A stretch of DNA of 64,000 nt from Kiritimatiellia bacterium. GTDB taxonomy: Bacteria; Verrucomicrobiota; Kiritimatiellia; CAIQIC01; Lenti-01. Of this stretch, positions 1 through 49,203 are shown one piece after another. The translations under genes were made by a program, and so were the position numbers. Each line of letters starts with the position of its first letter. The stretch's first letter is position 1. The stretch is taken from assembly GCA_028681135.1 (NCBI GenBank), contig JAQUJC010000006.1, positions 3,189-67,188 of the forward strand, given 5' to 3'. A model generated the notes under the pieces. It worked only from the letters and a program-made list of their open reading frames with translations. It searched no databases and was not told the DNA's origin.

Positions 1-70
1 ATTTTTTTTCGCGCGGAAATAAGAGCGTTACACTGATGACGATACCCGGGGGGAGCGAAGGAGCAGCACG

Positions 71-988
71 ATGAGGCGGATAAGTAACAAGGCGCAGCGG
101 ACTCGGTTTCACTGGCAGAGAAGCCCTGTTTGCACAATAGCGGGCCTATTGATTTTAGCGGCCACCGCGGCCTGGGGGCAGCAATCCCCCCTGGTGGTGG
201 GTAACAGCACTGCAATTCTGGACCCCATTGGACGTCCGTTTAAGGGGGAAGCGGGCCGTCCGGGCCGCTCAGGGCTGGTGGAAATCCGGGCGACCGCCTC
301 CGGGGGGGCGATTGTCCCCGCCACGGAGGAGCAAGGCCTAATCGATTTGCACAATCCCCTGGTGACCAATGCCTACATTGGACAGGGGATGATCGGAGCC
401 GATTCGGGAATGTTTTCCATCACGTTTACCGAGAGTGAACTGAGCAACTTGGTTACGTATTATGCGCGTGTCTTTGATTGGACGACCCCCGCGGGGTCTA
501 TTTATTACGTCGATTCGGCTCCCTTTGCCGGGATGGCCTCTGGCACCATTAATCCCGAGTTCAGCCCGCTGACGTTGACCGGGCCGGATAGCGACGGGGA
601 TGGGCTCCCGGATGCGTGGGAGTTAGAAAACGGGTTAGACGACGGCATCGCCGACACGGATGGCGATGGTTATGACGACTGGTTTGAAGTGTTTCATGGC
701 GACTACCTGCAGATGGTCGAGCCGGACCCGCCGTTGGCCATCCAGATCAACTCGCCGACCGAGGGCGGGGCAGAACCGTATTCTGTCTCCTGGTGGACCA
801 TTCCCGTCCCAAACATGTCGTATCACCTGCAATTCCGCCCGCTGTTGGAGAATGACGCCGCATATTCGAATGTCTGGAGCGGCACGGCAACGGACCATTA
901 TCTAGATGTCGATGTACATGACTGGGCCGGAACAAATAATCCGCCTAAGGGCTTTTTTCGGGTCATTGTTCCGTACAACAAGCCGTAG
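71..988 (+). CDS. secreted hypothetical protein with thrombospondin-type-3-like Ca-binding DxDxDG motifs and a C-terminal FN3-like domain
   Basis: Its N-terminal signal peptide reads LLILAATAAWGQQ. It carries acidic repeats (DSDGDGLPDAWELENG and DTDGDGYDDWFE), and its C-terminal beta-strand pattern ends in GFFRVIV. The DSDGDG(I/L)PDAWEL motif is shared with the CDS at 28633-29499. Confidence 0.6.
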   Translation: MRRISNKAQRTRFHWQRSPVCTIAGLLILAATAAWGQQSPLVVGNSTAILDPIGRPFKGEAGRPGRSGLVEIRATASGGAIVPATEEQGLIDLHNPLVTNAYIGQGMIGADSGMFSITFTESELSNLVTYYARVFDWTTPAGSIYYVDSAPFAGMASGTINPEFSPLTLTGPDSDGDGLPDAWELENGLDDGIADTDGDGYDDWFEVFHGDYLQMVEPDPPLAIQINSPTEGGAEPYSVSWWTIPVPNMSYHLQFRPLLENDAAYSNVWSGTATDHYLDVDVHDWAGTNNPPKGFFRVIVPYNKP

Positions 989-1237
989 CAAAACAGCGAT
1001 GAAACCAAACGAACAGATAGCCCGGCCAACTCCAGTGCGACTGCCGCGGGGTGCGCGACGCTGCGGCCTCACCGGGTGGTCCTCTTTTCACTGGTGGCCG
1101 GGGTTGCACCCCCGGCGCGATCACGCCATCCGCACAGGGCTGGTCGACATCCTCTTTATTGGAAAATTTCACCCCCCCCACCTATTTTCGGAAGATAAAA
1201 CCATGAATGGAACGATCCTGAGCAGGAGAATCGGTCG

Positions 1238-1501
1238 ATGAGCATCCTTAAGTATTTTTCGAGGCACCGGTCGGGCGCTGCCGCCTCCGGCCCAAAACAT
1301 CAAATCATAGGACTGACCCCTTTGCTGTGCGGTGCTAGGGTAGGGCGAACCCTCCGGGTGAGCCGGGCGGTTGCGTTTGGCTGTCCGAAAAATCCCGGCT
1401 CGGCAGGGATGCCTCGCCCTACCCTGCGCCACCCCCCCCACCTATTTTCGGAAGCTAAAACCATGAATGGAACGATCCTGAGCGGGAGAATCGGTCGATG
1501 A
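1238..1501 (+). pseudogene. truncated N-terminal cassette copy 1 of the giant surface protein gene (87 codons, diverges after LTPLL)
   Basis: Its first ~30 codons are near-identical to the start of the 2144 ORF. Its stop codon overlaps the next ATG (ATGA). Confidence 0.5.
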
Positions 1502-1875
1502 ACATCTTTAAGTACTTTTCGAGGCACCGGTCGGGCGCTGCCGCCTCCGGCCCAAAACATCAAATCATAGGACTGACCCCTTTGCTGTGCAGTGCTAGGG
1601 TAGGGCGAACCCTCCGGGTGAGCCGGGCGGTTGGGGCAGGGGAGCTCAATATTCAATATTCAACAATCAATGTCCAAGATTCAAGAGAACAGCCGAAAGC
1701 CAGACGGCTCGGGGTAGGGCGAACCCTCCGGGTGAGCCGGGCGGTTGCGTTTGGCTGTCCGGAAAATCCCGGCTCGGCAGGGACGCCTCGCCCTACCTTT
1801 CGGCCACCCCCCCACCTATTTTCGGAAGATAAAACTATGAATGGAACGATCCTGAGCGGGAGAATCGGTCGATGA
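1498..1875 (+). pseudogene. truncated N-terminal cassette copy 2 (125 codons, contains the AT-rich insertion)
   Basis: It has the same N-terminal 30 codons as the giant gene and is translationally coupled (ATGA) to the next copy. Confidence 0.5.
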
Positions 1876-2147
1876 ACATCTTTAAGTACTTTTCGAGGCA
1901 CCGGTCGGGCGCTGCCGCCTCCGGCCCAAAACATCAAATCATAGGACTGACCCCTTTGCTGACCCCTTTGCTGTGCGGTGCTAGGGTAGGGCGAACCCTC
2001 CGGGTGAGCCGGGCGGTTGCGTTTGGCTGTCCGGAAAATCCCGGCTCGGCAGGGACGCCTCGCCCTACCTTTCGGCCACCCCCCCACCTATTTTCAGAAG
2101 CTAAAACTATGAATGGAACGATCCTGAGCGGGAGAATCGGTCGATGA
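1872..2147 (+). pseudogene. truncated N-terminal cassette copy 3 (91 codons)
   Basis: It has the same N-terminal 30 codons as the giant gene, and its stop overlaps the ATG of the giant gene at 2144. Confidence 0.5.
2109..2147 (+). CDS. putative 12-aa leader peptide (MNGTILSGRIGR) translationally coupled to the giant gene; identical uORFs at 1203-1241, 1463-1501 and 1837-1875
   Basis: There is a GGAAG Shine-Dalgarno-like sequence 9 nt upstream. The TGA stop overlaps the main-gene ATG (atgA). The uORF is conserved in all four cassette copies. Confidence 0.4.
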   Translation: MNGTILSGRIGR

Positions 2148-5100
2148 ACATCCTTAAGTATTTTTCGAGGCACCGGTCGGGCGCTGCCGCCTCCAGCCCA
2201 AAACATCAAATCATAGGACTGACCCCTTTGCTGGTCTGCGGCCTGGCTTTGACGGGCGCATGGACGGAATCGGCCCGGGCCGAAGCTACCGTGTACTGGC
2301 GCAGCGGCGCCGGCGTGTCGAACTGGTGGGATGGCACCAACCCGTGGTATCGGAGCGAAGATACCTGGTGGGTGGATCGTCCGGACAAAGACACCAGCGG
2401 CAACTGGGATTCGGTCGGCCCGAATATTGTCCACTTCGATAACACCAGCGACCTGACCATGTCCGTCAACGGCGCCTATTTCCAGATTCACCAGCTGCTT
2501 TTCGACAACGGGACGGGGGCCCGGACGATGACGGCCCGGGACAGCGGCGGCATCGACATGAAAACCGGCAGTTCGACGACCAAAATCGAAAACAACGACT
2601 CGGATTCGCAGACGTTCAACACGCCGGTGGTTCTGTATACGGGCACGGAGATCAATCCCGTGAGCGGGGACATGACCTTCAACGAGCCCATCTACCTGAA
2701 GTCGAACTGGATCAACGTCTATGGCGCCAATCAGAATACGCTGTACCTGAACGGGGTGCTGAACGCGGACAGCGGCAACGGGGGGCTGGCGGTCAAGCAG
2801 AACAGCATTGTGGTGTTGACGAACAACAACACCTTTTCGGGGGCGATTTGGGTAGAAAAGGGCACAGTACGGCTGGATGGGCACACCAACGCGATCGGCG
2901 CGAGCGGGACCGTGAATGTGGGGACGAATGCGACGCTGGAACTCAACGGCAGTCAGAGCTGGCGTCCGGCGACGCTGAATCTGTACGGGACGGGGACCAA
3001 TGCCGGGAACGGCGCGTTGCGCAAGACGACCTCCGGTTCTACGCGCTGGCGGGGGAACATCAACCTGGGGGCGGATTCGCGCATCGTGGTGACCGGCGGC
3101 GGGTTGCAATTGTATGGGGCGATCACGGCGGCGACTCATACGCTGTACATCACCAACACCGTCACGGTGACGATGCAGAGCGGCTGTACGCTGAGCGGCA
3201 GCAAGACAACCGGGGACGGCGCGCTGCACAAAAGCGGCTCAAGCACGTTGTATCTGCGGGCGGCATCAAATCTGACGGGATCCATTTGGCTGCAAAAAGG
3301 CGAAATCCGGCAATACACCGACAATGATTCCACGATTCCAACCGGCGGCATTTTCCGGATGTCCGACGGGGTGACGTACCGGTCTGACGGGTCGGCGTCG
3401 CGCGAAAACGCCAAGGCGACGCAGATCGACGGGGATGTGGAACTGGGCTACAGCGGCGGCGGGGAACTGACCTTTTCCGGCAACGTGAATCTGACGGGTG
3501 GGCAGCGGGAACTGGATACGGTGAATGATGTCGTGATATCGGGTGCGGTCACAAACGGCGGACTCACGAAGGCGGGTTCGGCGACCCTGACGCTGTCGGG
3601 GGCCAACACGTATGCGACGGGAACGCTAGTGAGCGCGGGGACGCTGGAGGGGACGACGACGAGTTTGCAGGGGAATATCACGAACAATGCGGCGGTGGTG
3701 GTCAACCAGAGCGGCAACGGGACCTATTCCGGGGTGCTGAGCGGTACGGGGACGCTGACGAAGCAAGGGACGGGGACGGTGACGCTGTCGGGCACAAGCG
3801 GAATGAGCGGCAACACGACCGTCAGTGCGGGGGCGCTGCTGGTAAGCGGGTCGCTGAGCAGTTCGGCCGTGACGGTGTCGAGCGGCGCGACGCTGGCGGG
3901 GGCGGGGACGGTGGGGGCGCTGACGATGGCCAGCGGAGCGACGGTCAGCCCCGGGAATTTGTCGGGCGCAGCGGGAACGCTGGACGTGAGCGGAACGGCA
4001 ACGCTGGTGGGGACCTACACCTGCGACATTACGGGAACGGGGGGCACGGCGTGCGACCTGATCGACGCCACCGGCGCGGTGTCGGCCAGCGGAGCGCTGA
4101 CGATCAATTTGGGAACCTCGGCACCGAGCGGATTCAGCCAGTATACTTCCTATACCTGGACGATCATGAGCGGCAGTTCGGCCAATGCGGCGAATATGTC
4201 GATTGGCACAAAATGGACCAGCAGCGGTTCGTTTGGGGTGTCGGCCAGTGGGACAACGATTGTGGTGACCCACACGGCGGCGGCGCCGGGCAAACCGACG
4301 GTGGTGGCATCGGACGGGACGAGCACGGCACACGTAGCGCTGAGCTGGGGCGACGTGGCGGGTGAGACGGGATACGTGATCTCGCGCAACACGGTGGACA
4401 CCTATGCCACCGCGACGGCGCTCTACACCAACGCCGCCGGCGCGACGACCTACAGCGACACGGCGGCCGATCCGGGACAGCTCTACTATTACTGGGTGAC
4501 GGCCACGAATACCGGCGGCAGCACCGTCAGCGACTCGAACAGCGGCTACCGGCGGCTGACGCCCCCAGGCAACGTGGCGGCCACGGACGGGGCCTCGACG
4601 GCGAACGTGACGGTGACGTGGGATGCGGCGACGGGGGCAACCAGCTACCACGTCTGGCGCGACACGGATGCGAACCCGGCGGGTGCGACGGGGCTGGGCG
4701 CGCAGAGCAGCAGCTTTACGGACACGCCGACGCCGGGGCAGCTGTACTATTACTGGGTGGTGGCATCGAACAGCACTAGCAGTAGCACCAGCGATTGGAG
4801 CACGGCGAATGCCGGCTACCGTAAGTTGACCGCACCGGGCAGCGTGGCGGCGACGGAGAACCAGTCCGACAAGGTGACGGTGACGTGGGCCGATGGCTCC
4901 GGTGAGACGGGCTACAGCATTTGGCGGCATACGGCGAATGTGTCCGGTTCCGCAAACATTGTCGGCACGGCGGCGGCGAATGCCACGAGCTACGACGATA
5001 CGACCGGCGATGCGGGCACGACGTACTATTACTGGGTGCGGGCGACGAACAGCACCAGCACGAGTATGAGCGATTTCAGCGCGTCGGACACGGGCCTGAA

Positions 5101-8100
5101 GACCCTGAGCGAGCCGACGACGGCGGCCTCGGCGATCACCTTCAGCAGCCTGGACACGACATCCTACACGGTGAACTGGGCGCGCGGCAACGGGGACTAT
5201 GTGCTGGTGGTGGCGAGGCAGGGCAGTGCGCCAACGGCACCGACCGACAGCACGGTCTATACGGCCAATGCGGCGTTCGGCTCGGGCGACACGACGGCGG
5301 CGGGCAGCTACGTGGTCTACAAGGGCACGGGTACGTCGGTGCCGGTGACGGCGCTGTCGGCGGGCACGGAATACACGTTCGCGGTATACGAATTCAATGG
5401 CGCGGCTACGCCGAATTACCGCACGAGCGACGCGCCCGTGGCCAGCCGCACCACGCTGGTGGCGGAGCCGACGACGCAGGCGTCAGGAATTTCCGTGGGC
5501 ACGGTGAACGAAGCCTCGTTGGCGAACATTACGTGGACCGATGGCAACGGTGCCAGCCGCCTGGTGGTGGTGAAGGCGGGGGGCGCAGTCGACAGCTTCC
5601 CGGTGGACGGGGCGACCTATTCGGCGCACACGACCTTCGGATCCGGCACGGAACTTGGCACGGGCAATTATGTGGTGCATGACGGCAGCGGACCGCTGGC
5701 TTCATTGAGCGGGCTGACGCGCGATGTGATTTATCACTTCCGGGTGTTCGAATACAACGGCACGCTGGGAACGACGGCCAACTTCCTGACCGATGCGGCC
5801 AGCGGTAATCCGATCAGCCAGACGACCCGGGCGGCTAATCCCAGTTCGCAGCCGGCGAATTTGGCGATATCGGCTCTGAGCAGCAACCAGGTGACCCTGA
5901 CCTGGACCAAAGGAACAACGGGGACCAACACCCTGGTAGCGATCCGGGCGACCTATGCCCCACAGGACCCAGTGGATTTGAACAGTTATACGGCGGATAC
6001 CGCTTATGGCAGCGGTTCCGATCTTGGATCGGGAAGTTATGTGGTCTACACCGGCACGGGCGGAAGTGTGACGGTGACCGGATTGGAGCCTGGGAAATAC
6101 TATGTGGTGGAAGCTACCTCTTTCAACGGCAGTAACGGATCTGAAAACTACCGCGGTACGGACAGCCCGGCTTCTGTGAACTTCTACACGTTGATGCCGG
6201 AGCCGACGCAGACGACGGGGATTGAGTTCGGCACATTGGGCTCCACGAGCTATGCGGTATCGTACACGGCCGGCAATGGCTTGAGCCGCCTGGTGGTGGC
6301 CAAGGCCGGGAGCGCGGTGGATTGGACGCCAACGGACGGCACCGACTATCCGGGTGAAAACAACACCATTGGGTCGGCCCAGGAGTATGGGACTGGCAAC
6401 TTCCTCGTGCACCGCGGCACGAGTCCCTTCACGCTTTCGGGGCTGACGGCGGCGACGGACTATCACATCCGCATTTTCGAGTACCAGGGCACGAACGCGA
6501 CCTTGAACTACAACGTGGCCGGCGCGGCGGGGAATCCGAGCAACCGCTACACGCTCTCGACGGAGCCTTCGGCTCATGCGGCGACGTTCACGGCCACGGC
6601 GCTGTCGGATACCCAGATCGATCTGGACTGGGGCGCAGCCACGGGCGAGAGCGGCTTCATTATTGTGCGCAAAGTGGGTTCGGCACCGACGGGTACGCCG
6701 GTTGACGGCACCGCCTATGCCCAGGGGAATACCATTGGCGACGGCACGGTGGTTTATGTGAACACAACCGCCGGAGCGGGCTCCACGACCGACAGCTATA
6801 GCACATCCGCGGACACCGCCTACACCTACCAGATCTTCCCGTACGCCTATGACGGGACGCCGGCGCATGCCACCTACAACTATCGCACTGCCGCAACCGT
6901 GCCTTCCGATGATGCAACGACGGGGGCGTCCGAGCCCAGTACGAGTTCGACGGTGACCTCATTCCTGCCGGCCAGCGGTACCAGCGCAACCCTGATTTGG
7001 AACAATGCCGGTTCGGCCAACGGCACGATCATTTTGGTGAAGTCCGGCGGCGCGGTAAGTTCAAATCCGGCCGATTGGACCGGCTATAGCGCGAGCACGG
7101 TGTTCGGAAGCGGTGATCAGATCGGCTCAGGCAATTATGTGGTGGTGGCGGCGGCCGGCAAGTCCGGCAGCGTGACGATCACCGGGCTGAGTGCGGGGAC
7201 AACGTACCACGCGGCGGTGTATCCCTACAACGGCTCCGGGGCGTTTCTGAATTATCGGACGACGTCGCCGGGCACGGCCAGCGTGACGATTCTGCCGGAT
7301 CCCTCGGCGGCGACGGCGACGACGGACGGCAAAACCCTGATCGACCTGGCCTGGACGAAGCATGCCTCCTATGACGTGATGATCGTCCACAAAACCGGCA
7401 GCGCCTCGACTCTGCCGACGCAGGGTACGGCCTATGCCGTGGGCGACAACTGTGGCGGCGGCAAGGTGATTTACAAGGGCGGCGGGGCCGCACTGGAGCA
7501 TATCGTGGCTTCGGGGACCGCGCATCATTACGCATTCTATTCCTATAGTGGCAACTACTACTCGGCGGGGTTGACGGCCAACGATTCGACGACGTCCTTC
7601 GCGACCGACGAGATCGTGGAGACCTTTTCCTATACCAACAGCACGGTCTTGACGGGACTGAATGGCGAAAAAGGTTGGGGCGGGGGGTGGTACGGTGCCC
7701 AAATCGGGTTGTTTACCAATGTTTCCGGCAGTTTTGCGACGCAAACAAACTATCCGGCAACGTCCGGCAACAAGGCCTGGGTCTATCCGCCCAACAACTC
7801 CAGCGCCAAGGCGTATCGCTATCTGGGGAAGGAATACAAGAGCGGGAAAATCTACTTTGGCTACATGTTGAACTATACGTGGGACGGCACCAACAAGTAT
7901 GCGGGCCTGTCGCTGGCATGGAGCAACACCGAAGAAAAGGTGTTCTTCGGTGAAATCTATAACGACAACAAGATTCTCGGAATCGCCTACTCGAACAGCA
8001 ATACGGGGTCGTCCTACACGCTGGATAACGGATCGGGCAAGGACTACATCATTGTAGGGTATTACGACTGGAAAGAGGGGGAAGCCAAGGTCAAGGCTTA

Positions 8101-11100
8101 TGCAGTGGGGAGCCAGGCGGTATCGGCGTCGGAGCCATCGGCCTGGGATGCCACACTGTCTAAGGCCAGCAACGAGGTTGGGTGGGTGAATACGGTCTGG
8201 CTGTCGGCCGGCGCGGGGGCCACGGACGGCACGCCAGGCAACACCTATTTCGATGAAGTGCGCATCGCGACAAACTGGGCTGGCATCGTCCAGGTCCTGC
8301 CGACGAAGCCGGAGTGGCCGACCAACCAGACCGCGACGGTGGATGGCAACGAAATGGTGCGGTTGGCCTGGACGAAGAATGCGAACAGCGACAACGTCAT
8401 GATTCTGCACAAAACCACGGCGATCACGACCGACCCGACCGATGGCACGGGCTACAGCACCGGGAACACCATTGACGGGGCGACGGTCATTGCCAAGACC
8501 GCCGCCACCGCGCTCGAACATGTGGTGACGCCCGGCACGACCAATTATTACAAGTTCTACTCCTATATTGCCGCCAACTACTACTCGACGGGCATTGTGA
8601 CCAATGTCACCACGACAGCCTATGGCGCCAATGAGAATGTGAATCCCTTCAGTTATACCAATGCCACTTCGCTTGGGACTTCGACCAAGGGCGGGCAGGG
8701 TTTTGGGGCGAACTACTGGGTGATGGACAGCGGCACCTGGACCGCGCAGACGAACACCAGCACGGCGGTGACCGATGACACACCGAAGTTCTTCAATATG
8801 GACGGCTATCCAGACATGGCGGGCAATCTGGTGGTAGCTTCCGATCCGGGCAATGGCGGCAGTGCGCTGGCTCAGCGGTCGCTGGACAGTTCCATCAGCA
8901 CGGGCACGTTCTATGTCGCCTTCATGATGTCCTACCAGTATTACGGCGCCAATAAGTGGGCCGGATTGAGCCTGTTCAACGGCGCGACCGAGAAGGCGTT
9001 CTTCGGCAAGGGTGGCGGCGCCAACTGGAGTACCCTGGGCCTCAGCGATGGAACCACCACCTTCTGGTCCGCCTTCGATATGGGGCAGTTCAACTCCGGT
9101 AACGGCGATACCGGCAACGTCTATATGGTTCTGGGTAAATACGACTTTAGCAGCAAGGAACTGGCGGCCAAAGCCTATCGCATCCTGGATGGCGCCACCT
9201 TCCCTTCCTCCGAGCCGACCTGGGACGTGACCACGACCCTGGGTACTGGCATTGACTCCATCGACCGCATTAAGTTGAATATTGGGTCGAGCGATGGGGG
9301 GGCCAGCATCGGCAAGGTGTTCTATGATGAAATTCGCTATGCGACCAACTGGTCGGACCTGCTGGCGGTGACCTGCCCGAGCTGGGCGGGCAGCAACACG
9401 CTAAATGCGGCGGAGTGGACAGCGCCCGCCAGCACCTGGCTGGGCGACTCGGAAAATTTCACCTTCCAATCTTATCCGATCAGCCTGGGGCAGAGCGGCG
9501 GCATCGAATTTGACTGGGCGCGTGACGGCACATTCGCGACCTATCAGGATCTGCCGTGGCTGCAGAACGCCAACAACAACAGCTATTGGTCGAACCGGAT
9601 TCAGATGGTTACCGCTGGCGTGATCACCAGCCGCTATGTGGCGGCGGGCAGCGGTTGCGCCGAAGTCCTGACGAACAATCCGGCGCTGACGGTGCAGAAT
9701 CTGAATCCGCCATTCAATGCTGTGGCGATTCGGGACGCGGTCAACACCAACAGCCAGATCAACCTGACGTGGACCCGGGGGGTTTCGGGTGTGGCGAAGG
9801 ATACACTCATCATCCGGAGGGGGGGGGCTGCGCCGGCGTCTGGCCCGGTGAACACAACGACCTATAACGCGGGCGATCCCCTGGGCGGCGGCACGGTGAT
9901 CTATCGCGGGTCCGGCACCAGCTTCAACGACACAGGGCTGGCTCCGAGCACGACCTACACCTACCACTTCTATGCCGAAAACTGGACCTACTATTCGACC
10001 TACAACGACCGCGAAGTGGCCAGCGCCTCCACCGTGGCTGGCGCAAAAGACATCGTGATTGACGGGAATCCGGTCGACTGGGTCGGCACACCGTCGGCGG
10101 TACTCAACAGTTCGGCCAGTACGCTTCAGGAATACATCTGGACGGACAAGACGGGCGAGATGCGCACCGACCAGACGTCTTACTCCAATGCCGATATCGC
10201 CGAGTTCCGCGTCTATGCGGATACGGATTGGGTCTACTTCCTGATCGAAATGGGCAACATCACCGATGTGACCAATCTCCATATGGCCATTGGCATGGAT
10301 ACCCGAACCAATACCGCCAGCACGACCATGAACTGGCTGGGCGATGACGGCGCAACCTTTATCGGCGACCAGTATTTTGATGGCGGCGCGGCCCATTTCC
10401 CGGAGAATCAGCTCGGCATTCACTATGTCACCGCCGAAGGCGGCCTGCGGATTGAACAGTATGTGCAGGACGGGACAGCATGGTTTGCCCCACTCACCGG
10501 CGGCAACACGAATGTGGCCGCCAGCACAACTCATAATGCCATCGAACTCCGGGTGGCCCGCGCCGACCTCAATCTCAGCGGAGCCAAGACCGCCCGCTTT
10601 ACCCTGGCATCCTTCCTGAACACCGGCGTCTGGAACAATGATGGCGATGGAACGGTCCATATTGCAGACAACACGGCGAATGCGATGGACTCAGTCTCTA
10701 TTCCACCGTGGGGGAATCCGGATAACAACGCGGACATGTCGGCCTGGTTGGAAGATATCAGCGATGCGGATATCGACTTCTGGGTGGATGTCCAATTTGC
10801 AGCAGGGGGGCTGTCGGACAACGTCAGGCCGACGATGCCGGTGCTGGTGACGCCGACGAACACCGCGGCGGTGACGGCCAGCCCGAACCTGAGTTGGGAA
10901 AAGTCGACGGATTCAGACGGACAGATCACAGGGTATCTGCTGGAGATCAGCACCAATGAGCAGTTCAACGGAGTGGCGGGCACCGAGAACGGGCCGGTCG
11001 CCCTGCGGGTGCACCTGGATGCGTCCACGACAAACTACACGTTCACGACCTCGGCCGACAAATATTGGTGGCGGGTGCGCGCGCGCGATACGGCCGGAGA

Positions 11101-14100
11101 GTTGTCCGCCGCGACCACCCGCTGGTTCCAAGTAGTGGGCAAGCTGGATACCGAGGGGCCGCGGCCGACGCTGCTCTACATCGGCACCAACGTGGCCGGC
11201 TACCTAGCCGGGGACACGAACATCCTGAACCACATTGCAAAATACGGTCCCATCCAGAGCGTGCTGGATAGCGAAATCAGTGATACCAACAACGTGTTTG
11301 GATTTGTGCTGCGCTGGGAAGACCCCAGTGGGGTGTACGCCACGAACCGCAATTGGGACACGGGCGGATTTGCCTACAACATCATCGATACCGACGGACG
11401 TGTGACACCCAACTGGGACCTGGTAGAAATCGATACTGTTCATAACACCACAAACGAGTTGTGGAGTGTGGACAAGCCCTTCTATGCCACCAACACGCTG
11501 GCGACCGGCAATTCGGATGCCGTCATGACCAACTATGTCCAAGCGGCCTTCAGCGTGACCAACTACGATCCGACCATTGAGTACTATCTGACGGTCAGCG
11601 CCGAAGATGCCTACACCGATGGCGGAAGCTGGTGGGCCTACGGGTCATGGCCCAGTTTCACTAATTCAGCTGTCTCGATCCCGTATTACAGTGGGTGGTG
11701 CGCGGATGGACCGAACACGGCACGCAACATCACGACCAATTACCTCATCCGCATTCAGGTGGCCGATGACGACATTGTGCCGCCGTCGCCCAGCCAGGCG
11801 CTGGGGTGGGAGAATGACGGCACGAATGCCATGCTGGTAGTGTCCAATGCGGCGGGCCGACTGGATTACGTGGAAGGCGAAGGCCAGGACGTGCTCTACC
11901 AGATCACCGATGGTGCCTTGATCGGTGAGCCGCTTTCGTTCAGCTTCAACGCCTATGACTCGTATTACATGGGCGTGGCCCTCGGCACGAGCGCGACCTA
12001 CCAAGATCAAGGTCGCACCTTGACCAATACCGCCTTCGTGGCGGCCTATTGGCAGACTAACTGGGCCAACTATGATGTGACGCGGAGCTTGGTGGCCGAC
12101 ACGACCTCCGACGACACGATGCTGACCTGGCATTGGCCCAGTATCACCACCCAGGACGTCACCAAGCTGTGGGGGCCCACCAGCCTGGACGGCGAGTTGG
12201 GTGTCACAAATCTGATTCAGCTCGATCTCTTTGACCTCGATAACGACCGCGATGGCGACCAGGCCAGTGCGCGCCATAACTTTGGCCGCATCGTCCTCGT
12301 GGACGACGATGCCGTCGATCCGGTTGTCGATGAGCAAACGCTTTCGGTGACCGGCACCGGTTTGGCGCGCGAATACGTGCTGTCCAACCTGATCAACTGG
12401 GATTTTCTCGACGGCACAAATTCTCTGACATCCACCAATGTGGCCAGCGACATGACGGCCAGCGCTATTTCTCACGGTGGTGTGGGCGGAACCATCAATC
12501 TGCGGGAGGCCTCGGGGGTGCCGGAGCCCATGGCGCTCTACAGTGGTGCCCCGTACTACGACACGAATAACTATCGTTACTTGCAGTTCACGTTGGAGCC
12601 GACCACGACCACCAAGACCTTCAAGGCCAGCAGCATCAGTTTTGATAGCCGGGTCACCAGCTTGAACGGGCCCGACACCATTGAGCTGTGGGGAACCATG
12701 CCGGGGGGAGCTGAAGAATTGTGGGGGTCAACGACCATTGACCTCTCTGATTCAGAAAATCCGGTGGGAACGAACTGGAATGGCTATTCCATGGGTGTGA
12801 CCATGTCGGTGGCTTCGACGGGAACCGTCACGTTCAAGCTGCTGGCCCGTGTGGCAGACACGAACCATCTGGTTGCCAATGCCAATGCCAACTGGTACAT
12901 CGATAACCTGATCGTGTCGGGGTATGTCCTCGGTGAAGCGGGCGGCGCGCAGATCACGGACTATGACCTGGCGCATGGGACAGTGCAGTTCAATCTGCAG
13001 GCCTCCGACGTCTACAGCGGGATCGACGGCATGGTCGGCGCCACCGGCCGTGCTCCGCGGGTGGACTTCTGGAAAGATACAGCCGGTTATGATGTGCTGC
13101 CGGTCACCAACGCATTCATCACGAACGGGTGGTCAGCCGCAACAAATACCCTGCTGGACCTCTGGGGTACTGCGCCCGCGGCAGACAAAAAGCAAATTGC
13201 GCTGGGGGCGGGCGGGGCGTCGCTGACCTACTATGCACGCTTCACCGCGACGGACGCCGACGTGGACCGCAACGGCGACTGGCGCTCGGTGGCCTATATG
13301 ACGACGAATACGGTTTACGATGACGATAGCAGCCGGCCGACACGCGGCTACCTGTTCGGCGGACCGCTGGGTGTCTTTGTGGACGGTGTTCTCACCAAGG
13401 CGGTGTCCAGCGGCAATAATCGCGAGTATCGCATCAACGATGAGCAACTGCAGACGGCGTCGGCCACCTCCATCGCCGTCAAAGTCAACCTCTACGACTA
13501 TAGCGGCTGGACCGTGCCAACACTGTCTTTCTCCAATGCCACCGCTGGCGTGATGTCCACCAATCCGTGGTTGACGGCGGTGCATACCGACAGCGTGGAT
13601 ACGACCAACCAGCCCGAGGCCGCAATGGAATGGCAATTTGCCCGGGCACAGGCCAATACCCTGTTCGATTCCTACGAAAGCGTGGTGAGCGAATTCAGCA
13701 TTGTCTCGGTCTGGGACAAGGATGATGACCGTCAGGATATCGGAGGGAATAATATCGACAATCTGGAACTCGCCGATGCCCGGATCGGATACCTGACGTT
13801 CATCGACAACGATGTAGGCGCGCCCAATGTGCAGAGCAGCTACAGCACGACACGCACCAACTGGAACATCCCGACGGTTTATCTGGGTTTGCCGGGCGAT
13901 CCGGCGGCCAGCAACACGCTGATCAACGGCGCGGCCGTGCTGGATTCCAACGTGGGCACCGTTGCCTTGGCCGACCTGACCAACCGGGTCTATGACAGTC
14001 AGTTGGCCAAGGTGTCGACCGCCGCACCGCTGAGCGTCGTGCTGCCGATCTTCGACACGGGCGGCGGCGGCGGCGGGCGCACCATCAAGGGCGTGCAGCG

Positions 14101-16990
14101 CGGCACGGCCCTGACGGAGGTCTCGCCCAACGGCGGCTATGACATCACCAACTCGTCGATTTCCATCGGCTCCGTGGCGGCCAACAATGCCACCAACTAC
14201 CGTGCCGACCTGAGTTCGGCACTGCCGCTGACCCGCATCGCCGCGCAGTTCCCGACCAGCACGTGGGCGTTTACCTCGTTCTCCTATGCGCAAGTAGGCA
14301 CGTGGCTGCCGGGCACCAATCCGGTTGACCATGTCATGACTGCGAATATCTATGATGCCGATGACAACCGCCCTGAAGATCAGATGGCGAGTCAAGGCGT
14401 GGCTCTGGGCACGCTGCGCGTATTGGATAACGACACGGTGGCCCCGATCGCGCCGACCAATGTGAAGGTGAATGGGCAGGCGCTGGCCGGGCCGCTGACG
14501 CGTGAGACCGCGGCGTGGACGAACGACCCGGAATTCGTCGTTAGCTTCAAACCCGCCGTGGATGGCGACCCGACCGGAACCGATCTGGAAAAAACCGGAA
14601 TCGGTGAACACCGCATCGCCACGGACAAATCGGACATTGGCCCCGACACCGGCACCCCGCTGGCGGTTCCAGCCGAAAGTTCGCTGGCCAATTACGGATT
14701 CGAAAACGGCGCAACCAATTGGACGCTGACCGGCGCGGAAATCTCGACCGAACAGGCCTATGAGGGGACGCATTCGGTGAAGATGACGGGATCCACCGCG
14801 GTCCAGACCGTGGCATTGGTCAACACCAACGGCTACGTGCCACGGGTGACGGTCGTGGGGGCCCAATACATGGGCGCGACGGATGGCACCCTGACCATCG
14901 ACGGTCTGGACACCAACGACGGGGTGGTGGCGGGGCAGACGTTCGATGTGGTGATCACCGGTGCGGCCGGCCAGTGGACGACAGAGTCTTCCGCGGCGAC
15001 CTCACTGGATAGCTCGGTAGACCAGATTCGGGTGACGCTGACCTCCGGCGCCGCTACCTACTGGGACGACATTCAGGTGCAGATCGAACTGCTGGATGGT
15101 GGATCGCCGGTGGATGACGTGACCAGCCTCTTTACCGCCACCGAGCAGGGGCTCGTCACCAACTATCTCTTTGCGGTGGACCGCGACAATAACCGGCCCG
15201 GCGACCGCATGGCCAGCAGCGCGCCGGCAGACCCGGATATCCCGGCATTCGGCACCGCCTATGACATCACGCCGCCGACGCCGGTTCCCGATATCCTGGC
15301 CTCGACCGATGATGTGGGCGATCCGACCACCCAGTTCGATATTTTGTGGGATCCCAACAAACTGAACTACGAAGTCGGACCGGACAATCCGGCGGATACC
15401 AACCATCCCACGAAGATATCGGCCGATCGTGACCTGCTGTCGCCATGGCGCACCTATAAGATCTATTACGGCACCTTCAATCCCCTCGATGTGCCGGGCG
15501 GCGATGCGGGGCCCGGCAGTGGCGATGCCTATATCTACACGAACTACATTACAACCGGCGATTATCTGAGCTGGTCGAATGTGATCTCCTCATCGACGAT
15601 CGCCGACCCATCGGGGTCGAGCACGAATTATCTGGCCCTGACGAATCTCAACCAGAGTGCCATTCGTCTGTACGATCTGGACTTTGACCAAGACTATGCC
15701 GTGATCGTGGTTGGTGTGGACAAGGCCGGCAACGAAGGGTCGGCTTCGCCCTCCAGTTGGGCGACCAACAATACCATCAAGTTCTCGGTCACCCAGGGCA
15801 CCCTGCGCGCGTTTGCCCAGGCACCGAGTTTCCCAGCCGAGGGCGGCACGACTAATTTTACCCCCTGGACGGCTCCCAACCAAAAGGCGGCGACCTTGCA
15901 TTGGATTGCCGCAGGCCCGACCAATGCCCAGGGCAACTATACCCAGGTAACCAAGGACTACGACCTGATTCATTATACCGCCGGCTCGTTCCAGGAATCC
16001 GCCAACTGGACGTGGACCAAATCTGGCACCGTGCGTACCAATTGGTTTGTCGAAACGAATGCCTTTAACCTGCCTCGCGGAACGCTCCAATTCTATCGGG
16101 CGAGCTACAAGGACCGCTGGCGCCGAACCAATGTGGTCTCGGGCCTGAAGCAGCGCCCGCTGGCGAGCGAGGAAGTCTATGCCTTGCACAATGTGATCCT
16201 CTCGGAAGGCGTTAACTACGTGGGGCTGCACGGGCAGCCGTATACCAATACCTTTGCCGGGGTGTTTGGCGCCGATACCAATATCTGGCCGGCGGGGCCG
16301 AGCGCCGCCGCCGGTGCCACCCGGATCGAATTCTTTGTGGCCGGCACCAATCCCGTGGCGTCGGACACATACTTCTTTGGTTCAGATGCCAATTGGTACA
16401 AAGACAGTCCGCTGACAAAAGTGACAACAAACCTCCAGGCCACAAACTTCTTTACCCGAGGATTCTCGATTACCCTACCAACCAATCTGACGGGGCGGGG
16501 GTATGCCACAACAACCGCGTGGGATTTTGACCAGGAAACCAATGTGGCGGCGCTGGTGTGGCATCCCATCCTGCAAGTGCCGACCAATGGGGTGATGACG
16601 CACACCATCGCCTGCGGTGACTATGACCGGGATGCGGGTATCGATATCCCCGCATACACAGTTGTGGCGCTGAATCTGCCGGTTTCCGCACACCCGAGCC
16701 AGCTCAACTTCCCTACAAATTTTGTCCGCGGTCCACGGAATACTGCGGATAAAATCTATACGTGGGCTACCGAACAGAAAGCGGTCAGATCGGGTTACAT
16801 ATATTGCAATGCCAGCAACGATTGGTACTTCAGCGTTGGCGGGGGAACGACCCCCGTGCCCGCCGGATATTTCAAACCCAACGATGTTATTGTGATCGTG
16901 TCGCGAAATGGCGGTGTGGGCAACACGTGGCAATGGTCCTACCACCCGACCAACTTCTATAATCTCCCCACCCGTTGGATGGGCGAATAA
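2144..16990 (+). CDS. giant secreted multidomain surface/adhesin-like protein (4948 aa)
   Basis: It has a long N-terminal signal peptide (IIGLTPLLVCGLALTGAWTESARA). Residues ~150-700 are Gly/Thr/Ser-rich parallel beta-helix, autotransporter-passenger-like repeats (TLTLSGANTYATGT, GTLTKQGTGTVTLSG). Four FN3 domains each end in YYYWV. About ten ~100-aa FN3-like modules begin EPTT and end F.Y.G. Two lectin-like ConA/LamG-like regions (FGYMLNYTWDGTNKYAGLSLAW, FMMSYQYYGANKWAGLSLF) are present. Several Ca-binding-like Asp-rich segments occur in the C-terminal half. No recognisable C-terminal sorting motif was seen. Confidence 0.9.
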   Translation: MNILKYFSRHRSGAAASSPKHQIIGLTPLLVCGLALTGAWTESARAEATVYWRSGAGVSNWWDGTNPWYRSEDTWWVDRPDKDTSGNWDSVGPNIVHFDNTSDLTMSVNGAYFQIHQLLFDNGTGARTMTARDSGGIDMKTGSSTTKIENNDSDSQTFNTPVVLYTGTEINPVSGDMTFNEPIYLKSNWINVYGANQNTLYLNGVLNADSGNGGLAVKQNSIVVLTNNNTFSGAIWVEKGTVRLDGHTNAIGASGTVNVGTNATLELNGSQSWRPATLNLYGTGTNAGNGALRKTTSGSTRWRGNINLGADSRIVVTGGGLQLYGAITAATHTLYITNTVTVTMQSGCTLSGSKTTGDGALHKSGSSTLYLRAASNLTGSIWLQKGEIRQYTDNDSTIPTGGIFRMSDGVTYRSDGSASRENAKATQIDGDVELGYSGGGELTFSGNVNLTGGQRELDTVNDVVISGAVTNGGLTKAGSATLTLSGANTYATGTLVSAGTLEGTTTSLQGNITNNAAVVVNQSGNGTYSGVLSGTGTLTKQGTGTVTLSGTSGMSGNTTVSAGALLVSGSLSSSAVTVSSGATLAGAGTVGALTMASGATVSPGNLSGAAGTLDVSGTATLVGTYTCDITGTGGTACDLIDATGAVSASGALTINLGTSAPSGFSQYTSYTWTIMSGSSANAANMSIGTKWTSSGSFGVSASGTTIVVTHTAAAPGKPTVVASDGTSTAHVALSWGDVAGETGYVISRNTVDTYATATALYTNAAGATTYSDTAADPGQLYYYWVTATNTGGSTVSDSNSGYRRLTPPGNVAATDGASTANVTVTWDAATGATSYHVWRDTDANPAGATGLGAQSSSFTDTPTPGQLYYYWVVASNSTSSSTSDWSTANAGYRKLTAPGSVAATENQSDKVTVTWADGSGETGYSIWRHTANVSGSANIVGTAAANATSYDDTTGDAGTTYYYWVRATNSTSTSMSDFSASDTGLKTLSEPTTAASAITFSSLDTTSYTVNWARGNGDYVLVVARQGSAPTAPTDSTVYTANAAFGSGDTTAAGSYVVYKGTGTSVPVTALSAGTEYTFAVYEFNGAATPNYRTSDAPVASRTTLVAEPTTQASGISVGTVNEASLANITWTDGNGASRLVVVKAGGAVDSFPVDGATYSAHTTFGSGTELGTGNYVVHDGSGPLASLSGLTRDVIYHFRVFEYNGTLGTTANFLTDAASGNPISQTTRAANPSSQPANLAISALSSNQVTLTWTKGTTGTNTLVAIRATYAPQDPVDLNSYTADTAYGSGSDLGSGSYVVYTGTGGSVTVTGLEPGKYYVVEATSFNGSNGSENYRGTDSPASVNFYTLMPEPTQTTGIEFGTLGSTSYAVSYTAGNGLSRLVVAKAGSAVDWTPTDGTDYPGENNTIGSAQEYGTGNFLVHRGTSPFTLSGLTAATDYHIRIFEYQGTNATLNYNVAGAAGNPSNRYTLSTEPSAHAATFTATALSDTQIDLDWGAATGESGFIIVRKVGSAPTGTPVDGTAYAQGNTIGDGTVVYVNTTAGAGSTTDSYSTSADTAYTYQIFPYAYDGTPAHATYNYRTAATVPSDDATTGASEPSTSSTVTSFLPASGTSATLIWNNAGSANGTIILVKSGGAVSSNPADWTGYSASTVFGSGDQIGSGNYVVVAAAGKSGSVTITGLSAGTTYHAAVYPYNGSGAFLNYRTTSPGTASVTILPDPSAATATTDGKTLIDLAWTKHASYDVMIVHKTGSASTLPTQGTAYAVGDNCGGGKVIYKGGGAALEHIVASGTAHHYAFYSYSGNYYSAGLTANDSTTSFATDEIVETFSYTNSTVLTGLNGEKGWGGGWYGAQIGLFTNVSGSFATQTNYPATSGNKAWVYPPNNSSAKAYRYLGKEYKSGKIYFGYMLNYTWDGTNKYAGLSLAWSNTEEKVFFGEIYNDNKILGIAYSNSNTGSSYTLDNGSGKDYIIVGYYDWKEGEAKVKAYAVGSQAVSASEPSAWDATLSKASNEVGWVNTVWLSAGAGATDGTPGNTYFDEVRIATNWAGIVQVLPTKPEWPTNQTATVDGNEMVRLAWTKNANSDNVMILHKTTAITTDPTDGTGYSTGNTIDGATVIAKTAATALEHVVTPGTTNYYKFYSYIAANYYSTGIVTNVTTTAYGANENVNPFSYTNATSLGTSTKGGQGFGANYWVMDSGTWTAQTNTSTAVTDDTPKFFNMDGYPDMAGNLVVASDPGNGGSALAQRSLDSSISTGTFYVAFMMSYQYYGANKWAGLSLFNGATEKAFFGKGGGANWSTLGLSDGTTTFWSAFDMGQFNSGNGDTGNVYMVLGKYDFSSKELAAKAYRILDGATFPSSEPTWDVTTTLGTGIDSIDRIKLNIGSSDGGASIGKVFYDEIRYATNWSDLLAVTCPSWAGSNTLNAAEWTAPASTWLGDSENFTFQSYPISLGQSGGIEFDWARDGTFATYQDLPWLQNANNNSYWSNRIQMVTAGVITSRYVAAGSGCAEVLTNNPALTVQNLNPPFNAVAIRDAVNTNSQINLTWTRGVSGVAKDTLIIRRGGAAPASGPVNTTTYNAGDPLGGGTVIYRGSGTSFNDTGLAPSTTYTYHFYAENWTYYSTYNDREVASASTVAGAKDIVIDGNPVDWVGTPSAVLNSSASTLQEYIWTDKTGEMRTDQTSYSNADIAEFRVYADTDWVYFLIEMGNITDVTNLHMAIGMDTRTNTASTTMNWLGDDGATFIGDQYFDGGAAHFPENQLGIHYVTAEGGLRIEQYVQDGTAWFAPLTGGNTNVAASTTHNAIELRVARADLNLSGAKTARFTLASFLNTGVWNNDGDGTVHIADNTANAMDSVSIPPWGNPDNNADMSAWLEDISDADIDFWVDVQFAAGGLSDNVRPTMPVLVTPTNTAAVTASPNLSWEKSTDSDGQITGYLLEISTNEQFNGVAGTENGPVALRVHLDASTTNYTFTTSADKYWWRVRARDTAGELSAATTRWFQVVGKLDTEGPRPTLLYIGTNVAGYLAGDTNILNHIAKYGPIQSVLDSEISDTNNVFGFVLRWEDPSGVYATNRNWDTGGFAYNIIDTDGRVTPNWDLVEIDTVHNTTNELWSVDKPFYATNTLATGNSDAVMTNYVQAAFSVTNYDPTIEYYLTVSAEDAYTDGGSWWAYGSWPSFTNSAVSIPYYSGWCADGPNTARNITTNYLIRIQVADDDIVPPSPSQALGWENDGTNAMLVVSNAAGRLDYVEGEGQDVLYQITDGALIGEPLSFSFNAYDSYYMGVALGTSATYQDQGRTLTNTAFVAAYWQTNWANYDVTRSLVADTTSDDTMLTWHWPSITTQDVTKLWGPTSLDGELGVTNLIQLDLFDLDNDRDGDQASARHNFGRIVLVDDDAVDPVVDEQTLSVTGTGLAREYVLSNLINWDFLDGTNSLTSTNVASDMTASAISHGGVGGTINLREASGVPEPMALYSGAPYYDTNNYRYLQFTLEPTTTTKTFKASSISFDSRVTSLNGPDTIELWGTMPGGAEELWGSTTIDLSDSENPVGTNWNGYSMGVTMSVASTGTVTFKLLARVADTNHLVANANANWYIDNLIVSGYVLGEAGGAQITDYDLAHGTVQFNLQASDVYSGIDGMVGATGRAPRVDFWKDTAGYDVLPVTNAFITNGWSAATNTLLDLWGTAPAADKKQIALGAGGASLTYYARFTATDADVDRNGDWRSVAYMTTNTVYDDDSSRPTRGYLFGGPLGVFVDGVLTKAVSSGNNREYRINDEQLQTASATSIAVKVNLYDYSGWTVPTLSFSNATAGVMSTNPWLTAVHTDSVDTTNQPEAAMEWQFARAQANTLFDSYESVVSEFSIVSVWDKDDDRQDIGGNNIDNLELADARIGYLTFIDNDVGAPNVQSSYSTTRTNWNIPTVYLGLPGDPAASNTLINGAAVLDSNVGTVALADLTNRVYDSQLAKVSTAAPLSVVLPIFDTGGGGGGRTIKGVQRGTALTEVSPNGGYDITNSSISIGSVAANNATNYRADLSSALPLTRIAAQFPTSTWAFTSFSYAQVGTWLPGTNPVDHVMTANIYDADDNRPEDQMASQGVALGTLRVLDNDTVAPIAPTNVKVNGQALAGPLTRETAAWTNDPEFVVSFKPAVDGDPTGTDLEKTGIGEHRIATDKSDIGPDTGTPLAVPAESSLANYGFENGATNWTLTGAEISTEQAYEGTHSVKMTGSTAVQTVALVNTNGYVPRVTVVGAQYMGATDGTLTIDGLDTNDGVVAGQTFDVVITGAAGQWTTESSAATSLDSSVDQIRVTLTSGAATYWDDIQVQIELLDGGSPVDDVTSLFTATEQGLVTNYLFAVDRDNNRPGDRMASSAPADPDIPAFGTAYDITPPTPVPDILASTDDVGDPTTQFDILWDPNKLNYEVGPDNPADTNHPTKISADRDLLSPWRTYKIYYGTFNPLDVPGGDAGPGSGDAYIYTNYITTGDYLSWSNVISSSTIADPSGSSTNYLALTNLNQSAIRLYDLDFDQDYAVIVVGVDKAGNEGSASPSSWATNNTIKFSVTQGTLRAFAQAPSFPAEGGTTNFTPWTAPNQKAATLHWIAAGPTNAQGNYTQVTKDYDLIHYTAGSFQESANWTWTKSGTVRTNWFVETNAFNLPRGTLQFYRASYKDRWRRTNVVSGLKQRPLASEEVYALHNVILSEGVNYVGLHGQPYTNTFAGVFGADTNIWPAGPSAAAGATRIEFFVAGTNPVASDTYFFGSDANWYKDSPLTKVTTNLQATNFFTRGFSITLPTNLTGRGYATTTAWDFDQETNVAALVWHPILQVPTNGVMTHTIACGDYDRDAGIDIPAYTVVALNLPVSAHPSQLNFPTNFVRGPRNTADKIYTWATEQKAVRSGYIYCNASNDWYFSVGGGTTPVPAGYFKPNDVIVIVSRNGGVGNTWQWSYHPTNFYNLPTRWMGE

Positions 16991-47304: not shown

Positions 47305-47463
47305 CGGACGATTCAACCACGGATGGATGCCGATCAGTTGAGCAGGTAGGGCGACTTGGCCCAAGTCGCCGGGATCGGAAAGTGCGGCGTGAATCCGCTG
47401 AGAGTGGGGTTGAAAAGATTTTATTAAAAAGATAGGCTCACCAGACAGAAACCGGAGGTACAC

Positions 47464-49011: not shown

Positions 49012-49035
49012 GGGGACGCCTGAAGGGTGAAGGTT

Positions 49036-49155
49036 TTCCACAGTGTGGAAGAAAAGTTTCCACAGTGTGGAAAAACGGGGCGGATTTTTCCACGGTATGG
49101 AAAAGTGGTGGGCCAATCTTCCACGCTATGGAAAATAGTTTTCCACAGTGTGGAA
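49036..49155. promoter_or_regulatory. array of five 15-bp palindromic sites TTCCAC-N3-GTGGAA (3 perfect TTCCACAGTGTGGAA, 2 variants) at alternating 22/30-31 bp spacing
   Basis: The copies lie at 49036-49050, 49058-49072, 49088-49102, 49119-49133 and 49141-49155. All five therefore fall on one DNA face at ~2 and ~3 helical-turn steps. The array sits between the nrdR stop and the start of the 48289-49011 gene. Confidence 0.55.
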
Positions 49156-49203
49156 AACAGCGGTGGGACAACAGGCTGCGGCAGGCCGCGGGAGGGGGGG
49201 GGG

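Follow-up and report, generated by a model that had tools for sequence, protein, structure and literature searches.

The 64,000-nt window analysed here, from a Kiritimatiellia bacterium (contig JAQUJC010000006.1, positions 3,189-67,188; coordinates below are counted from the window start), carries a gene for a giant secreted protein whose start region is repeated four times in tandem. A module of ~157 bp, P, comprising a poly-C tract, a 12-codon upstream open reading frame (uORF), an ATGA overlap and the first 30 codons of the giant gene, occurs in four copies that are 94-98% identical at 1171-2233, and an 83-nt palindrome, E, separates the copies. Between the upstream gene for a TSP3-repeat protein and the giant gene, the arrangement is X-P-(E-P)x3-gene, X being a spacer. 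We argue below that this array is probably a cluster of REPINs, doublets of repetitive extragenic palindromic (REP) sequences, which was copied together with the initiation region of the gene. Related loci fetched for comparison, 150 in all, are denoted by L numbers. The features of the window are as follows.

71..988, + strand: upstream gene, TSP3-repeat protein of 305 amino acids (aa), Pfam TSP3_bac; the conserved left neighbour of the giant gene in all related loci
989..1170, + strand: X, lineage-specific spacer from the TSP3 gene to the first module, without a REP remnant; the X-to-P junction also occurs in L130
1171..1327, + strand: P1, module copy 1, with C8 at 1172-1179, uORF at 1203-1241, and pseudo-start ATG 1238 plus 30 codons
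1340..1422, + strand: E1, 83-nt REPIN, a head-to-head GTAG REP dimer with left flank CTGTGCGGTGCTAGG and right flank CCTGCGCCA
1431..1587, + strand: P2, module copy 2, with C8 at 1432-1439, uORF at 1463-1501 and pseudo-start ATG 1498
1600..1711, + strand: E2a, long-form variant of the element, with the left REP arm at 1600-1633 and then a ~78-nt AT-rich spacer at 1634-1711; a long form also sits at the orthologous place in sister-species contigs L133, L134, L136 and L137
1714..1796, + strand: E2b, complete 83-nt REPIN, the same as E3 at 83/83 positions
1806..1973, + strand: P3, module copy 3, with C7 at 1807-1813, uORF at 1837-1875 and pseudo-start ATG 1872
1986..2068, + strand: E3, complete 83-nt REPIN, matching the sister-species element at 82/83 positions
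2078..2233, + strand: P4, the functional copy, with C7 at 2079-2085, uORF at 2109-2147 and the real start ATG 2144
2144..16990, + strand: giant secreted PATR/fn3 repeat protein, 4948 aa

Three probes of 23-30 nt, taken from the leader (CACCTATTTTCGGAAGATAAAAC), the coding part (TTTTCGAGGCACC...) and the palindrome arm, each matched four times in the window, and every match fell within 1169-2233; the expectation from shuffled sequence was zero. The four-fold repeat in front of the giant surface-protein gene, as proposed in the first-pass annotation, is real. Repeat finders gave start-to-start spacings of 260, 374 and 272 bp for units that are 93-98% identical. P3 carries a 12-bp duplication, CTGACCCCTTTG (1947-1973), and only P4 runs on into a complete signal peptide and mature protein, the latter homologous to its orthologues from TVYW onward. 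On the gene side, the duplication breakpoint lies inside the hydrophobic core of the signal peptide, between MNILKYFSRHRSGAAASSPKHQIIGLTPLL and VCGLALTGAWTESARA. On the other side, the repeated module begins at the poly-C tract, so that the sole -35-like hexamer (TTGGAA, ~1159-1164) lies outside units 2-4.

Each unit encodes the same uORF peptide, MNGTILS(G/R)RIGR, at 1203-1241, 1463-1501, 1837-1875 and 2109-2147, and the TGA of each uORF overlaps the following ATG (1238, 1498, 1872 and 2144) as ATGA. From the first three of these ATGs run truncated frames at 1238-1501 (87 aa), 1498-1875 (125 aa) and 1872-2147 (91 aa), each of which stops on the uORF stop of the next unit. The unbroken chain of overlapping frames and the 87-125-codon fragments described earlier were thus recovered in both the open reading frame (ORF) list and the alignment. 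The same continuity is seen in the sister species described below, where in L132 and L134 the frame from the old start likewise crosses the REPIN and stops on the ATGA overlap.

We next consider the palindrome. Its GTAG heads point outward, giving a head-to-head dimer in which the outer 9-nt arms and the inner 8-nt arms (GAGCCGGG/CCCGGCTC) pair. The arms had been recognized correctly in the first reading, but the element is 83 nt long rather than ~100 bp and has the additional inner arms. As RNA, E1 folds at -65.2 kcal/mol (z = -4.35), and the elements of the window fold as one long hairpin of -58 to -65 kcal/mol. A search of Rfam with 1-4000 returned only a chance match of 21.5 bits to a viral frameshift element, and no known RNA family. 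When the arm pattern GTAGGGCGA-N4-TCC-N4-GAGCCGGG was scanned against one genome per species, it was found in more than 119 loci, and among the matches listed nearly all came from Opitutae, other Verrucomicrobiota, Kiritimatiellia, Lentisphaerae, Victivallales and Chthoniobacterales. In GCGA-N4-TCC-N4'-GAGC, N4 and N4' were fully complementary in 114 of the 128 instances among these matches, against a mean of 22 and a maximum of 34 after shuffling, and more than 20 different stem sequences were represented. Every arm starts with GTAG(GGCGA), with GTGG variants in L049 and L113, and dimers occur in both forms, with GTAG outside, as in the window, or inside. Several metagenome-assembled genomes (MAGs) have 5-9 separate REP-bearing contigs each (e.g. 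DAOLDD01, CAZCDO01, CAZHSS01 and Ereboglobus NZ_JAQFIP01). GTAG-tagged REPs are defined by an unpaired GTAG head plus a hairpin, according to Di Nocera et al. 2013 (PMC3733652). Because its GTAG head and its stem, kept by covariation, fit this definition, the element of the array is a REP dimer and, on these sequence criteria, a REPIN in the sense of Bertels & Rainey 2011 (PMC3116915).

A small ORF of the HUH/Y1 type is present in six fetched REP loci. These ORFs were located by tblastn with an approximate E. coli YafM-like query, which served as a probe only, the evidence being the NCBIfam score: the ORFs of L018, L116 and L050 reached 91.2, 86.3 and 80.9 bits against NF047646, the REP-associated tyrosine transposase (RAYT) family (cut-off 80), and the Pfam Y1_Tnp score was just below its cut-off. 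The ORFs in L116, L050, L113 and L049 are bracketed by REP heads of the window-element family, and that in L018 by a sister variant. Clustering of the ORFs from the 119 REP loci listed did not by itself reveal a shared transposase. An integron attC or cassette array was also considered, because imperfect palindromes lie between short ORF-bearing units, and was rejected: the palindrome is a GTAG REP dimer, and there is no integrase among the scanned ORFs of the window.

Several observations concern the REP family more widely. L089 (a Bacilli MAG) and L119 (an Acidimicrobiales MAG) are the sole records from outside the Planctomycetes-Verrucomicrobia-Chlamydiae (PVC) bacteria among the 119 REP-motif matches listed, and are probably binning contamination or chance. 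In the window itself, REP copies are limited to the array cluster and one singlet of another subtype (GTAG-GGCGACTTGG-CC-CAAGTCGCC) at 47346-47372, in the spacer between a CoA-disulfide-reductase-like gene and sodB; the source genome therefore carries other GTAG REPs. An AT-rich motif family (CAATATYCAATATYCAA...TGTCCAA...TTCAAG) occurs at 1634-1711 of the window, in L043 (~2470-2520), in L132 (600-760), and in L020 and L108, sitting in long-form REPINs and in other spacers of Kiritimatiellia and a 'Spartobacteria' MAG; for non-coding DNA, it is conserved across phyla to an unusual degree. A long form similar to E2a is also present in L043.

The history of the locus can be followed in its relatives, in all groups of which the genes for a 242-aa protein, the TSP3-repeat protein and the giant PATR protein follow one another in this order. 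The structures between the TSP3 gene and the giant gene are as follows.

Distant relatives, 15 contigs (L120, L123, L138-L150): constant spacer of 68-70 bp and no REP; the protein starts MSTKRMNPGRV... (MNTNGMKTKRV... in L123)
Sister species, six contigs (L132-L137): ~45 bp lead to the old start (O), after which come the REPIN (E), the module (P) and the remaining gene
Close relative of the window (L130): X joins P1 as in the window; the contig breaks off within P

L130 is 96.4% identical to the window over 1276 bp and 94.5% identical over X itself. The six sister-species contigs share an identical TSP3 protein, which is 67% identical to that of the window. In these contigs the old start, O, is equipped with a good Shine-Dalgarno sequence, codes for MNRNVMRMGRADGSVDIDASLPMSGLCGAR and is an orthologue of the outgroup start, with a local score of 41 that none of 300 shuffles reached. 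E has the same flanks as in the window (CTGTGCGGTGCTAGG to its left, CTTTCGGCCA to its right), and P has the uORF, the ATGA and the start MNILKHF.../MNIFKHF.... The sister species thus shows the single-unit state, with one REPIN and one module, compared with which the window lineage has three P copies more. Since the sister species has O-E-P-gene with the same flanks of E, the [E-P] block predates the split of the two.

The REPIN of the sister species is itself variable. L132 has the short 83-nt form, and L134, L136 and L137 have a long form with the AT-rich spacer of window unit 2, to which it is 87% identical; L133 and L135 have scaffold gaps exactly at the REPIN. L132 and L134 are 99.8% identical over the 2.2 kb up to E, including the TSP3 gene, and 85-90% identical beyond it, in P and the start of the giant gene. 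This drop in identity suggests that in the sister species the REPIN marks the boundary of an allelic replacement or of diversifying recombination of the surface-protein gene.

The three-gene cluster is present across the Kiritimatiellia clade (window 71-16990; L120, L123 and L130-L150), and its ~242-aa protein has a weak PEP-CTERM-type match. Conservation of the three genes together points to a functional unit by which the giant protein is exported or anchored.

X (989-1170) has no significant similarity to E, O or the outgroup spacers; homology of X to O or to these spacers and a remnant of E inside X were each considered and were not significant. P as a diverged duplicate of O likewise failed, with only a 10-mer matching at a score reached by 10 of 300 shuffles, and the likeness of the uORF peptide ..GRIGR to ancestral N-termini (MSRIGRADFG.., MNRNVMRMGRADG..) stays an impression, the comparison of P with O not being significant. 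Away from this locus and its orthologues, P was not found in the window, the 150 fetched loci, a metagenome DNA scan or a protein database: the scan with a 21-mer from P gave only two unrelated low-GC chance matches, the protein search with the pseudo-ORF gave no matches, and neither P nor the spacer of E matched in viral-contig scans. Exact-protein look-ups found no entry for the TSP3 protein, the 125-aa pseudo-ORF or the giant protein. By sodB, the same species is present at 99.6-100% nucleotide identity in four public assemblies, namely JGI 3300044572, GCA_028704045.1, ERZ27250894 and JGI 3300028602, and no retrieved contig covers the array.

From these data, we consider the array to be an ordered REPIN cluster, that is, a REPIN copied in tandem with flanking DNA, the flank here being the initiation region and first 30 codons of the giant gene; we put the probability of this reading at about 0.7. 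It looks like a by-product of REPIN dynamics and not a purpose-built expression switch. The comparison of loci shows the earlier events. Ancestrally, 68-70 bp separated the giant gene from the TSP3 gene. Later, in the common ancestor of the window species and its sister, a block of [REPIN + module P] came to sit within the coding region of the signal peptide and cut off the original start codon, of which the dead stub O survives in the sister species, and the giant gene has been read from the start codon in P ever since. The [E-P] unit would then have been amplified in the window lineage, most likely because the ~157-bp copies of P underwent unequal homologous recombination or replication slippage, the presumed route by which ordered REPIN clusters grow, with later gene conversion. 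Indeed, among the P copies there are eight variable sites in 148 nt, and because five pairs of these are four-gamete-incompatible, the copies have exchanged sequence. Only ATG 2144 would yield the protein, and the three upstream copies would be pseudo-starts. Transcription probably enters from the TSP3 gene, because the spacer in the relatives is only 68-70 bp, no terminator is predicted on the + strand and the units have no promoter-like site. The first-pass proposal that the inverted element mediated the duplications is plausible in so far as it ties the REPIN to them, which is reasonable because REPINs are known to be reiterated in tandem with flanking DNA, but the recombining sequences were more likely the P copies.

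In E. coli and Salmonella, REPs and bacterial interspersed mosaic elements resemble the window elements in being palindromic repeats between cistrons that form stable mRNA hairpins and are tied to local duplications; in those hosts they also act as stabilisers or attenuators of mRNA. Shyamala and colleagues reportedly described, in 1990, REPs at the join-points of tandem duplications. In those duplications REPs are said to recombine at both ends, whereas the outer ends of the window array are copies of P, not REPs. The closest likeness is with Pseudomonas fluorescens SBW25, which has 16 ordered REPIN clusters, the largest with four REPINs over more than 700 bp (PMC3116915). As in these clusters, the window has inverted REP doublets with a spacer, a long hairpin and a GTAG head, and flank, REPIN and flank follow one another head-to-tail at high identity, with 3-4 REPINs over ~0.9 kb. 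Unlike in SBW25, the flank is a leader, a start codon and 30 codons, giving a series of pseudo-starts, and not anonymous intergenic DNA; the host is a member of the Kiritimatiellia and not a proteobacterium; and the cluster lies where a REPIN-containing block once interrupted a coding region. For PVC bacteria, Di Nocera et al. 2013 (PMC3733652) describe GTAG REPs, with REP dimers 'reiterated in tandem with flanking DNA' and, in Opitutus terrae, many REPs at the N-termini of ORFs. The GTAG REPs of O. terrae and Rhodopirellula baltica, as portrayed there, share with the window family the GTAG/GTGG head, a 6-9-bp stem and a short loop, head-to-head and tail-to-tail dimers, a frequent location at ORF N-termini and an association with RAYTs. 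The intragenic dimers in that account are tolerated, frame-preserving inserts, whereas the window element parts a dead start from its replacement; identity of the window element with a numbered GTAG family (e.g. GTAG-20) is not established.

Tandem units of REP plus flank were also found in other fetched PVC loci, namely L046 (224 bp, REPIN and the 3' end of a gene), L063 (146 bp, three copies) and L104 (225 bp). Separately, at 1-600 of L062 (Opitutus MAG JBDSSD010000169), a second GTAG REP family (GTAGCCCGCTCC-GGRA-GGAGCGGG) occurs in tandem units of ~300 bp with flanks, which makes it another ordered REP cluster.

Several points weigh against an ordered REPIN cluster as the full account. First, the exact copy number rests on one assembly, since no independent assembly spans the four-copy array. 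Second, the 64-kb window has no transposase gene (no RAYT among the scanned ORFs) and no further copy of the array REPIN, so that the status of the element as a REPIN in the source genome is inferred from relatives. Third, the origin of P is unexplained, with no detectable duplication from O and no other copy found. Fourth, E is identical at 82 of 83 positions across species, whereas identity is 82-84% in the neighbouring P and 74% in the TSP3 gene; at 16% divergence, the probability of at most one mismatch in E is ~9e-6. The difference points to constraint or homogenisation acting on E. Finally, each of the three units is 2 mod 3 in length, and the two indels (12 and 114 bp) are divisible by three, a coincidence of ~1 in 27 before the open frames are counted; this regularity goes mildly beyond the neutral prediction.

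These frame relations lead to the possibility that the array is a selected tuning device, in which RecA-dependent changes in copy number, poly-C slippage and the hairpins would set the level of expression reaching ATG 2144 and the ATGA chain would carry ribosomes. We regard this as unlikely. In its favour, the upstream ORF is open across the REPIN and ends on ATGA in every variant (the three junctions of the window, L132 and L134), in addition to the regularity of unit and indel lengths. However, stop codons, as read from the sequence, occur in only one of the three frames of E, which makes such open frames cheap. On the reading as an ordered REPIN cluster, the ATGA chain would arise largely of itself, as would the frames that stay open through the REPIN, because every unit has the same uORF, ATGA and start, because E has stops in one frame and because the units are 2 mod 3 in length. 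Nevertheless, the indels in multiples of three and the ORFs through the REPIN in L132 and L134 may leave room for translation to play a part in traversing the hairpins, and, on the ordered-cluster reading too, the ORF chain may incidentally keep ribosomes on a leader of ~1 kb with three very stable hairpins. The sister-species strains are also polymorphic for the short and long REPIN despite an identical TSP3 protein and, as noted, diverge downstream of E, and between L132 and L134 the first ~91 nt of P (leader, uORF and start) keep 96.7% identity, in contrast to the diverging coding n-region. On the other hand, the uORF starts with TTG in L134, L120 has no uORF, and tandem REPIN clusters with flanks arise elsewhere without known function (PMC3116915).

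A switch would also need signals in the units. The array had been described as copies of the promoter and 5' end; the 5' end holds, but the promoter was an assumption, not an observation. A scan of the + strand of 1100-2300 predicted no promoter or terminator inside the array. Multiplication of a promoter is thus not supported, as no sigma-70-like + strand promoter is predicted in any unit and the repeat excludes the only -35-like hexamer. By eye, a weak TTGGAA-18-TATTTT can be read around the poly-C of unit 1 only, below the threshold of the promoter scanner. A candidate general promoter motif near the poly-C, CTATTTTC, was rejected, its other occurrences being only in a cluster of DnaA boxes and one spacer.

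Poly-C or poly-G tracts make promoters of surface-protein genes phase-variable in Bordetella (fim) and Neisseria (opc/porA). As in these switches, the gene that follows the C7-C8 tract encodes a surface protein, and the tract differs in length between copies and relatives. Each copy does carry such a homopolymer, as first noted (C8 at 1172, C8 at 1432, C7 at 1807 and C7 at 2079), ~60 nt upstream of each ATG. Since the length differs between copies and from the 96%-identical L130, which has C7 against C8 in window unit 1, slippage does occur, a point in favour of tuning. In contrast to Bordetella and Neisseria, no mapped or predicted promoter brackets the tract, which in the sister species reads CCACCACCCACCC and so is interrupted, not a homopolymer. 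Similar tracts are common: the window has 22 runs of C or G of at least 8, including a C8 on the coding strand of recA (G8 at 18429, + strand). The tract is therefore nothing exceptional for the window, long C/G runs being ordinary in the source genome, and the sister species does not keep it as a homopolymer; on these grounds, the proposed phase-variation switch is weak. The alternative that the fragments act as decoy signal peptides is not supported, because the truncated copies end inside the hydrophobic core (IIGLTPLL followed by CGARVGR...) without a complete h-region and cleavage site.

Long G runs as such are strongly enriched on the + strand (C for minus-strand genes), with 11 runs of at least 9 against ~2 expected from base composition, e.g. 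at 9819, 18013, 21495, 27309, 48223, 48846, 49194, 51058, 51321 (G12), 57297 (G10) and 63723 (G14), several of them within genes or a short way upstream of one. Candidate causes are the use of CCC codons for proline, a regulatory motif and hypermutable tracts throughout the genome.

A related version would have the REPIN cluster co-opted as a copy-number-variable leader, in which the hairpins would attenuate operon read-through, the ATGA-linked ORFs would ferry ribosomes, and crossing-over, possibly with slippage, would tune the adhesin. We hold this, too, to be unlikely.

It is more doubtful still that the REP-associated transposase itself amplified the array, with a single-stranded DNA excision product of [E + flank] reinserted by its own end and [E-P] being, or having once been, a mobilisable unit with its own start codon. 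In the alignments, as we read them, [E-P] behaves as a single insertion when set against the empty site, with a short TGCGG repeat at its borders; related genomes have RAYT genes, E is kept at 82/83 across species, and the REP-plus-flank tandems of other PVC loci are of similar size (146-225 bp). However, P was found nowhere else in the searches above, its 157-bp copies at 94-98% identity are an ample substrate for RecA, and the mosaic pattern of single-nucleotide polymorphisms points to homologous exchange. Moreover, no target duplications are known from IS200/IS605-type enzymes.

That the four copies are an assembly artefact, with strain variants chained by the assembler at a locus of truly one or two units, is the least probable of these alternatives and is very improbable, for although short and long REPIN alleles co-exist in the sister species, breaks or N-gaps in its scaffolds fall right at the element (L133, L135), the contig of L130 stops within P and the source assembly, absent from the collections searched, could not be cross-checked, each copy has its own combination of polymorphisms and indels with consistent junctions, assemblers normally collapse such repeats and do not expand them, the X-P junction is confirmed in L130 and the E-P-gene junction in L132 and L134, and a contiguous window of 64 kb with a repetitive gene of 14.8 kb suggests long-read data.

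Three further observations lie apart from the array. At 49030-49160, immediately downstream of a minus-strand nrdR-like gene, there are four perfect DnaA boxes (TTTTCCACA; 0.48 expected) in two palindromic pairs (TTTTCCACACTGTGGAAAA), with the near-boxes TTTTCCATA and CTTCCACA alongside; the cluster could be oriC or a DnaA-regulated promoter, although the cumulative GC skew does not turn in the window. In L040 (81-804), a 251-bp segment, whose beginning resembles the 3' part of a tRNA, occurs twice at 100% identity with a distance of 473 bp, which looks like the signature of an integration site or a recent duplication. L081, from a Verrucomicrobia MAG, has ~10 tandem units of ~80 bp at 2153-3014 with ~96% identity.

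Taken together, the ordinary dynamics of REPINs can leave what looks like a very regular 'switch' in front of a giant gene. A single GTAG REP/REPIN family, together with its cognate RAYT genes, extends over Verrucomicrobiota, Kiritimatiellota and Lentisphaerota, and the conservation of E (82/83 against 74-84% in its flanks) bears on how REPIN populations stay homogeneous. Particular to the window, as far as the comparison of loci indicates, are that the reiterated flank is the replacement start of the gene and that the cluster descends from an interrupted signal-peptide coding region. The locus is a rare reconstructed case in which a REPIN-containing block broke the coding of a signal peptide and the gene survived via a replacement start just downstream, which was later multiplied. 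If the array modulates expression, a selfish or commensal repeat would have been recruited to regulate a surface protein; and if it does serve as a co-opted leader, this domesticated REPIN array would be a contingency locus in a PVC bacterium, providing heritable and reversible tuning of an adhesin.

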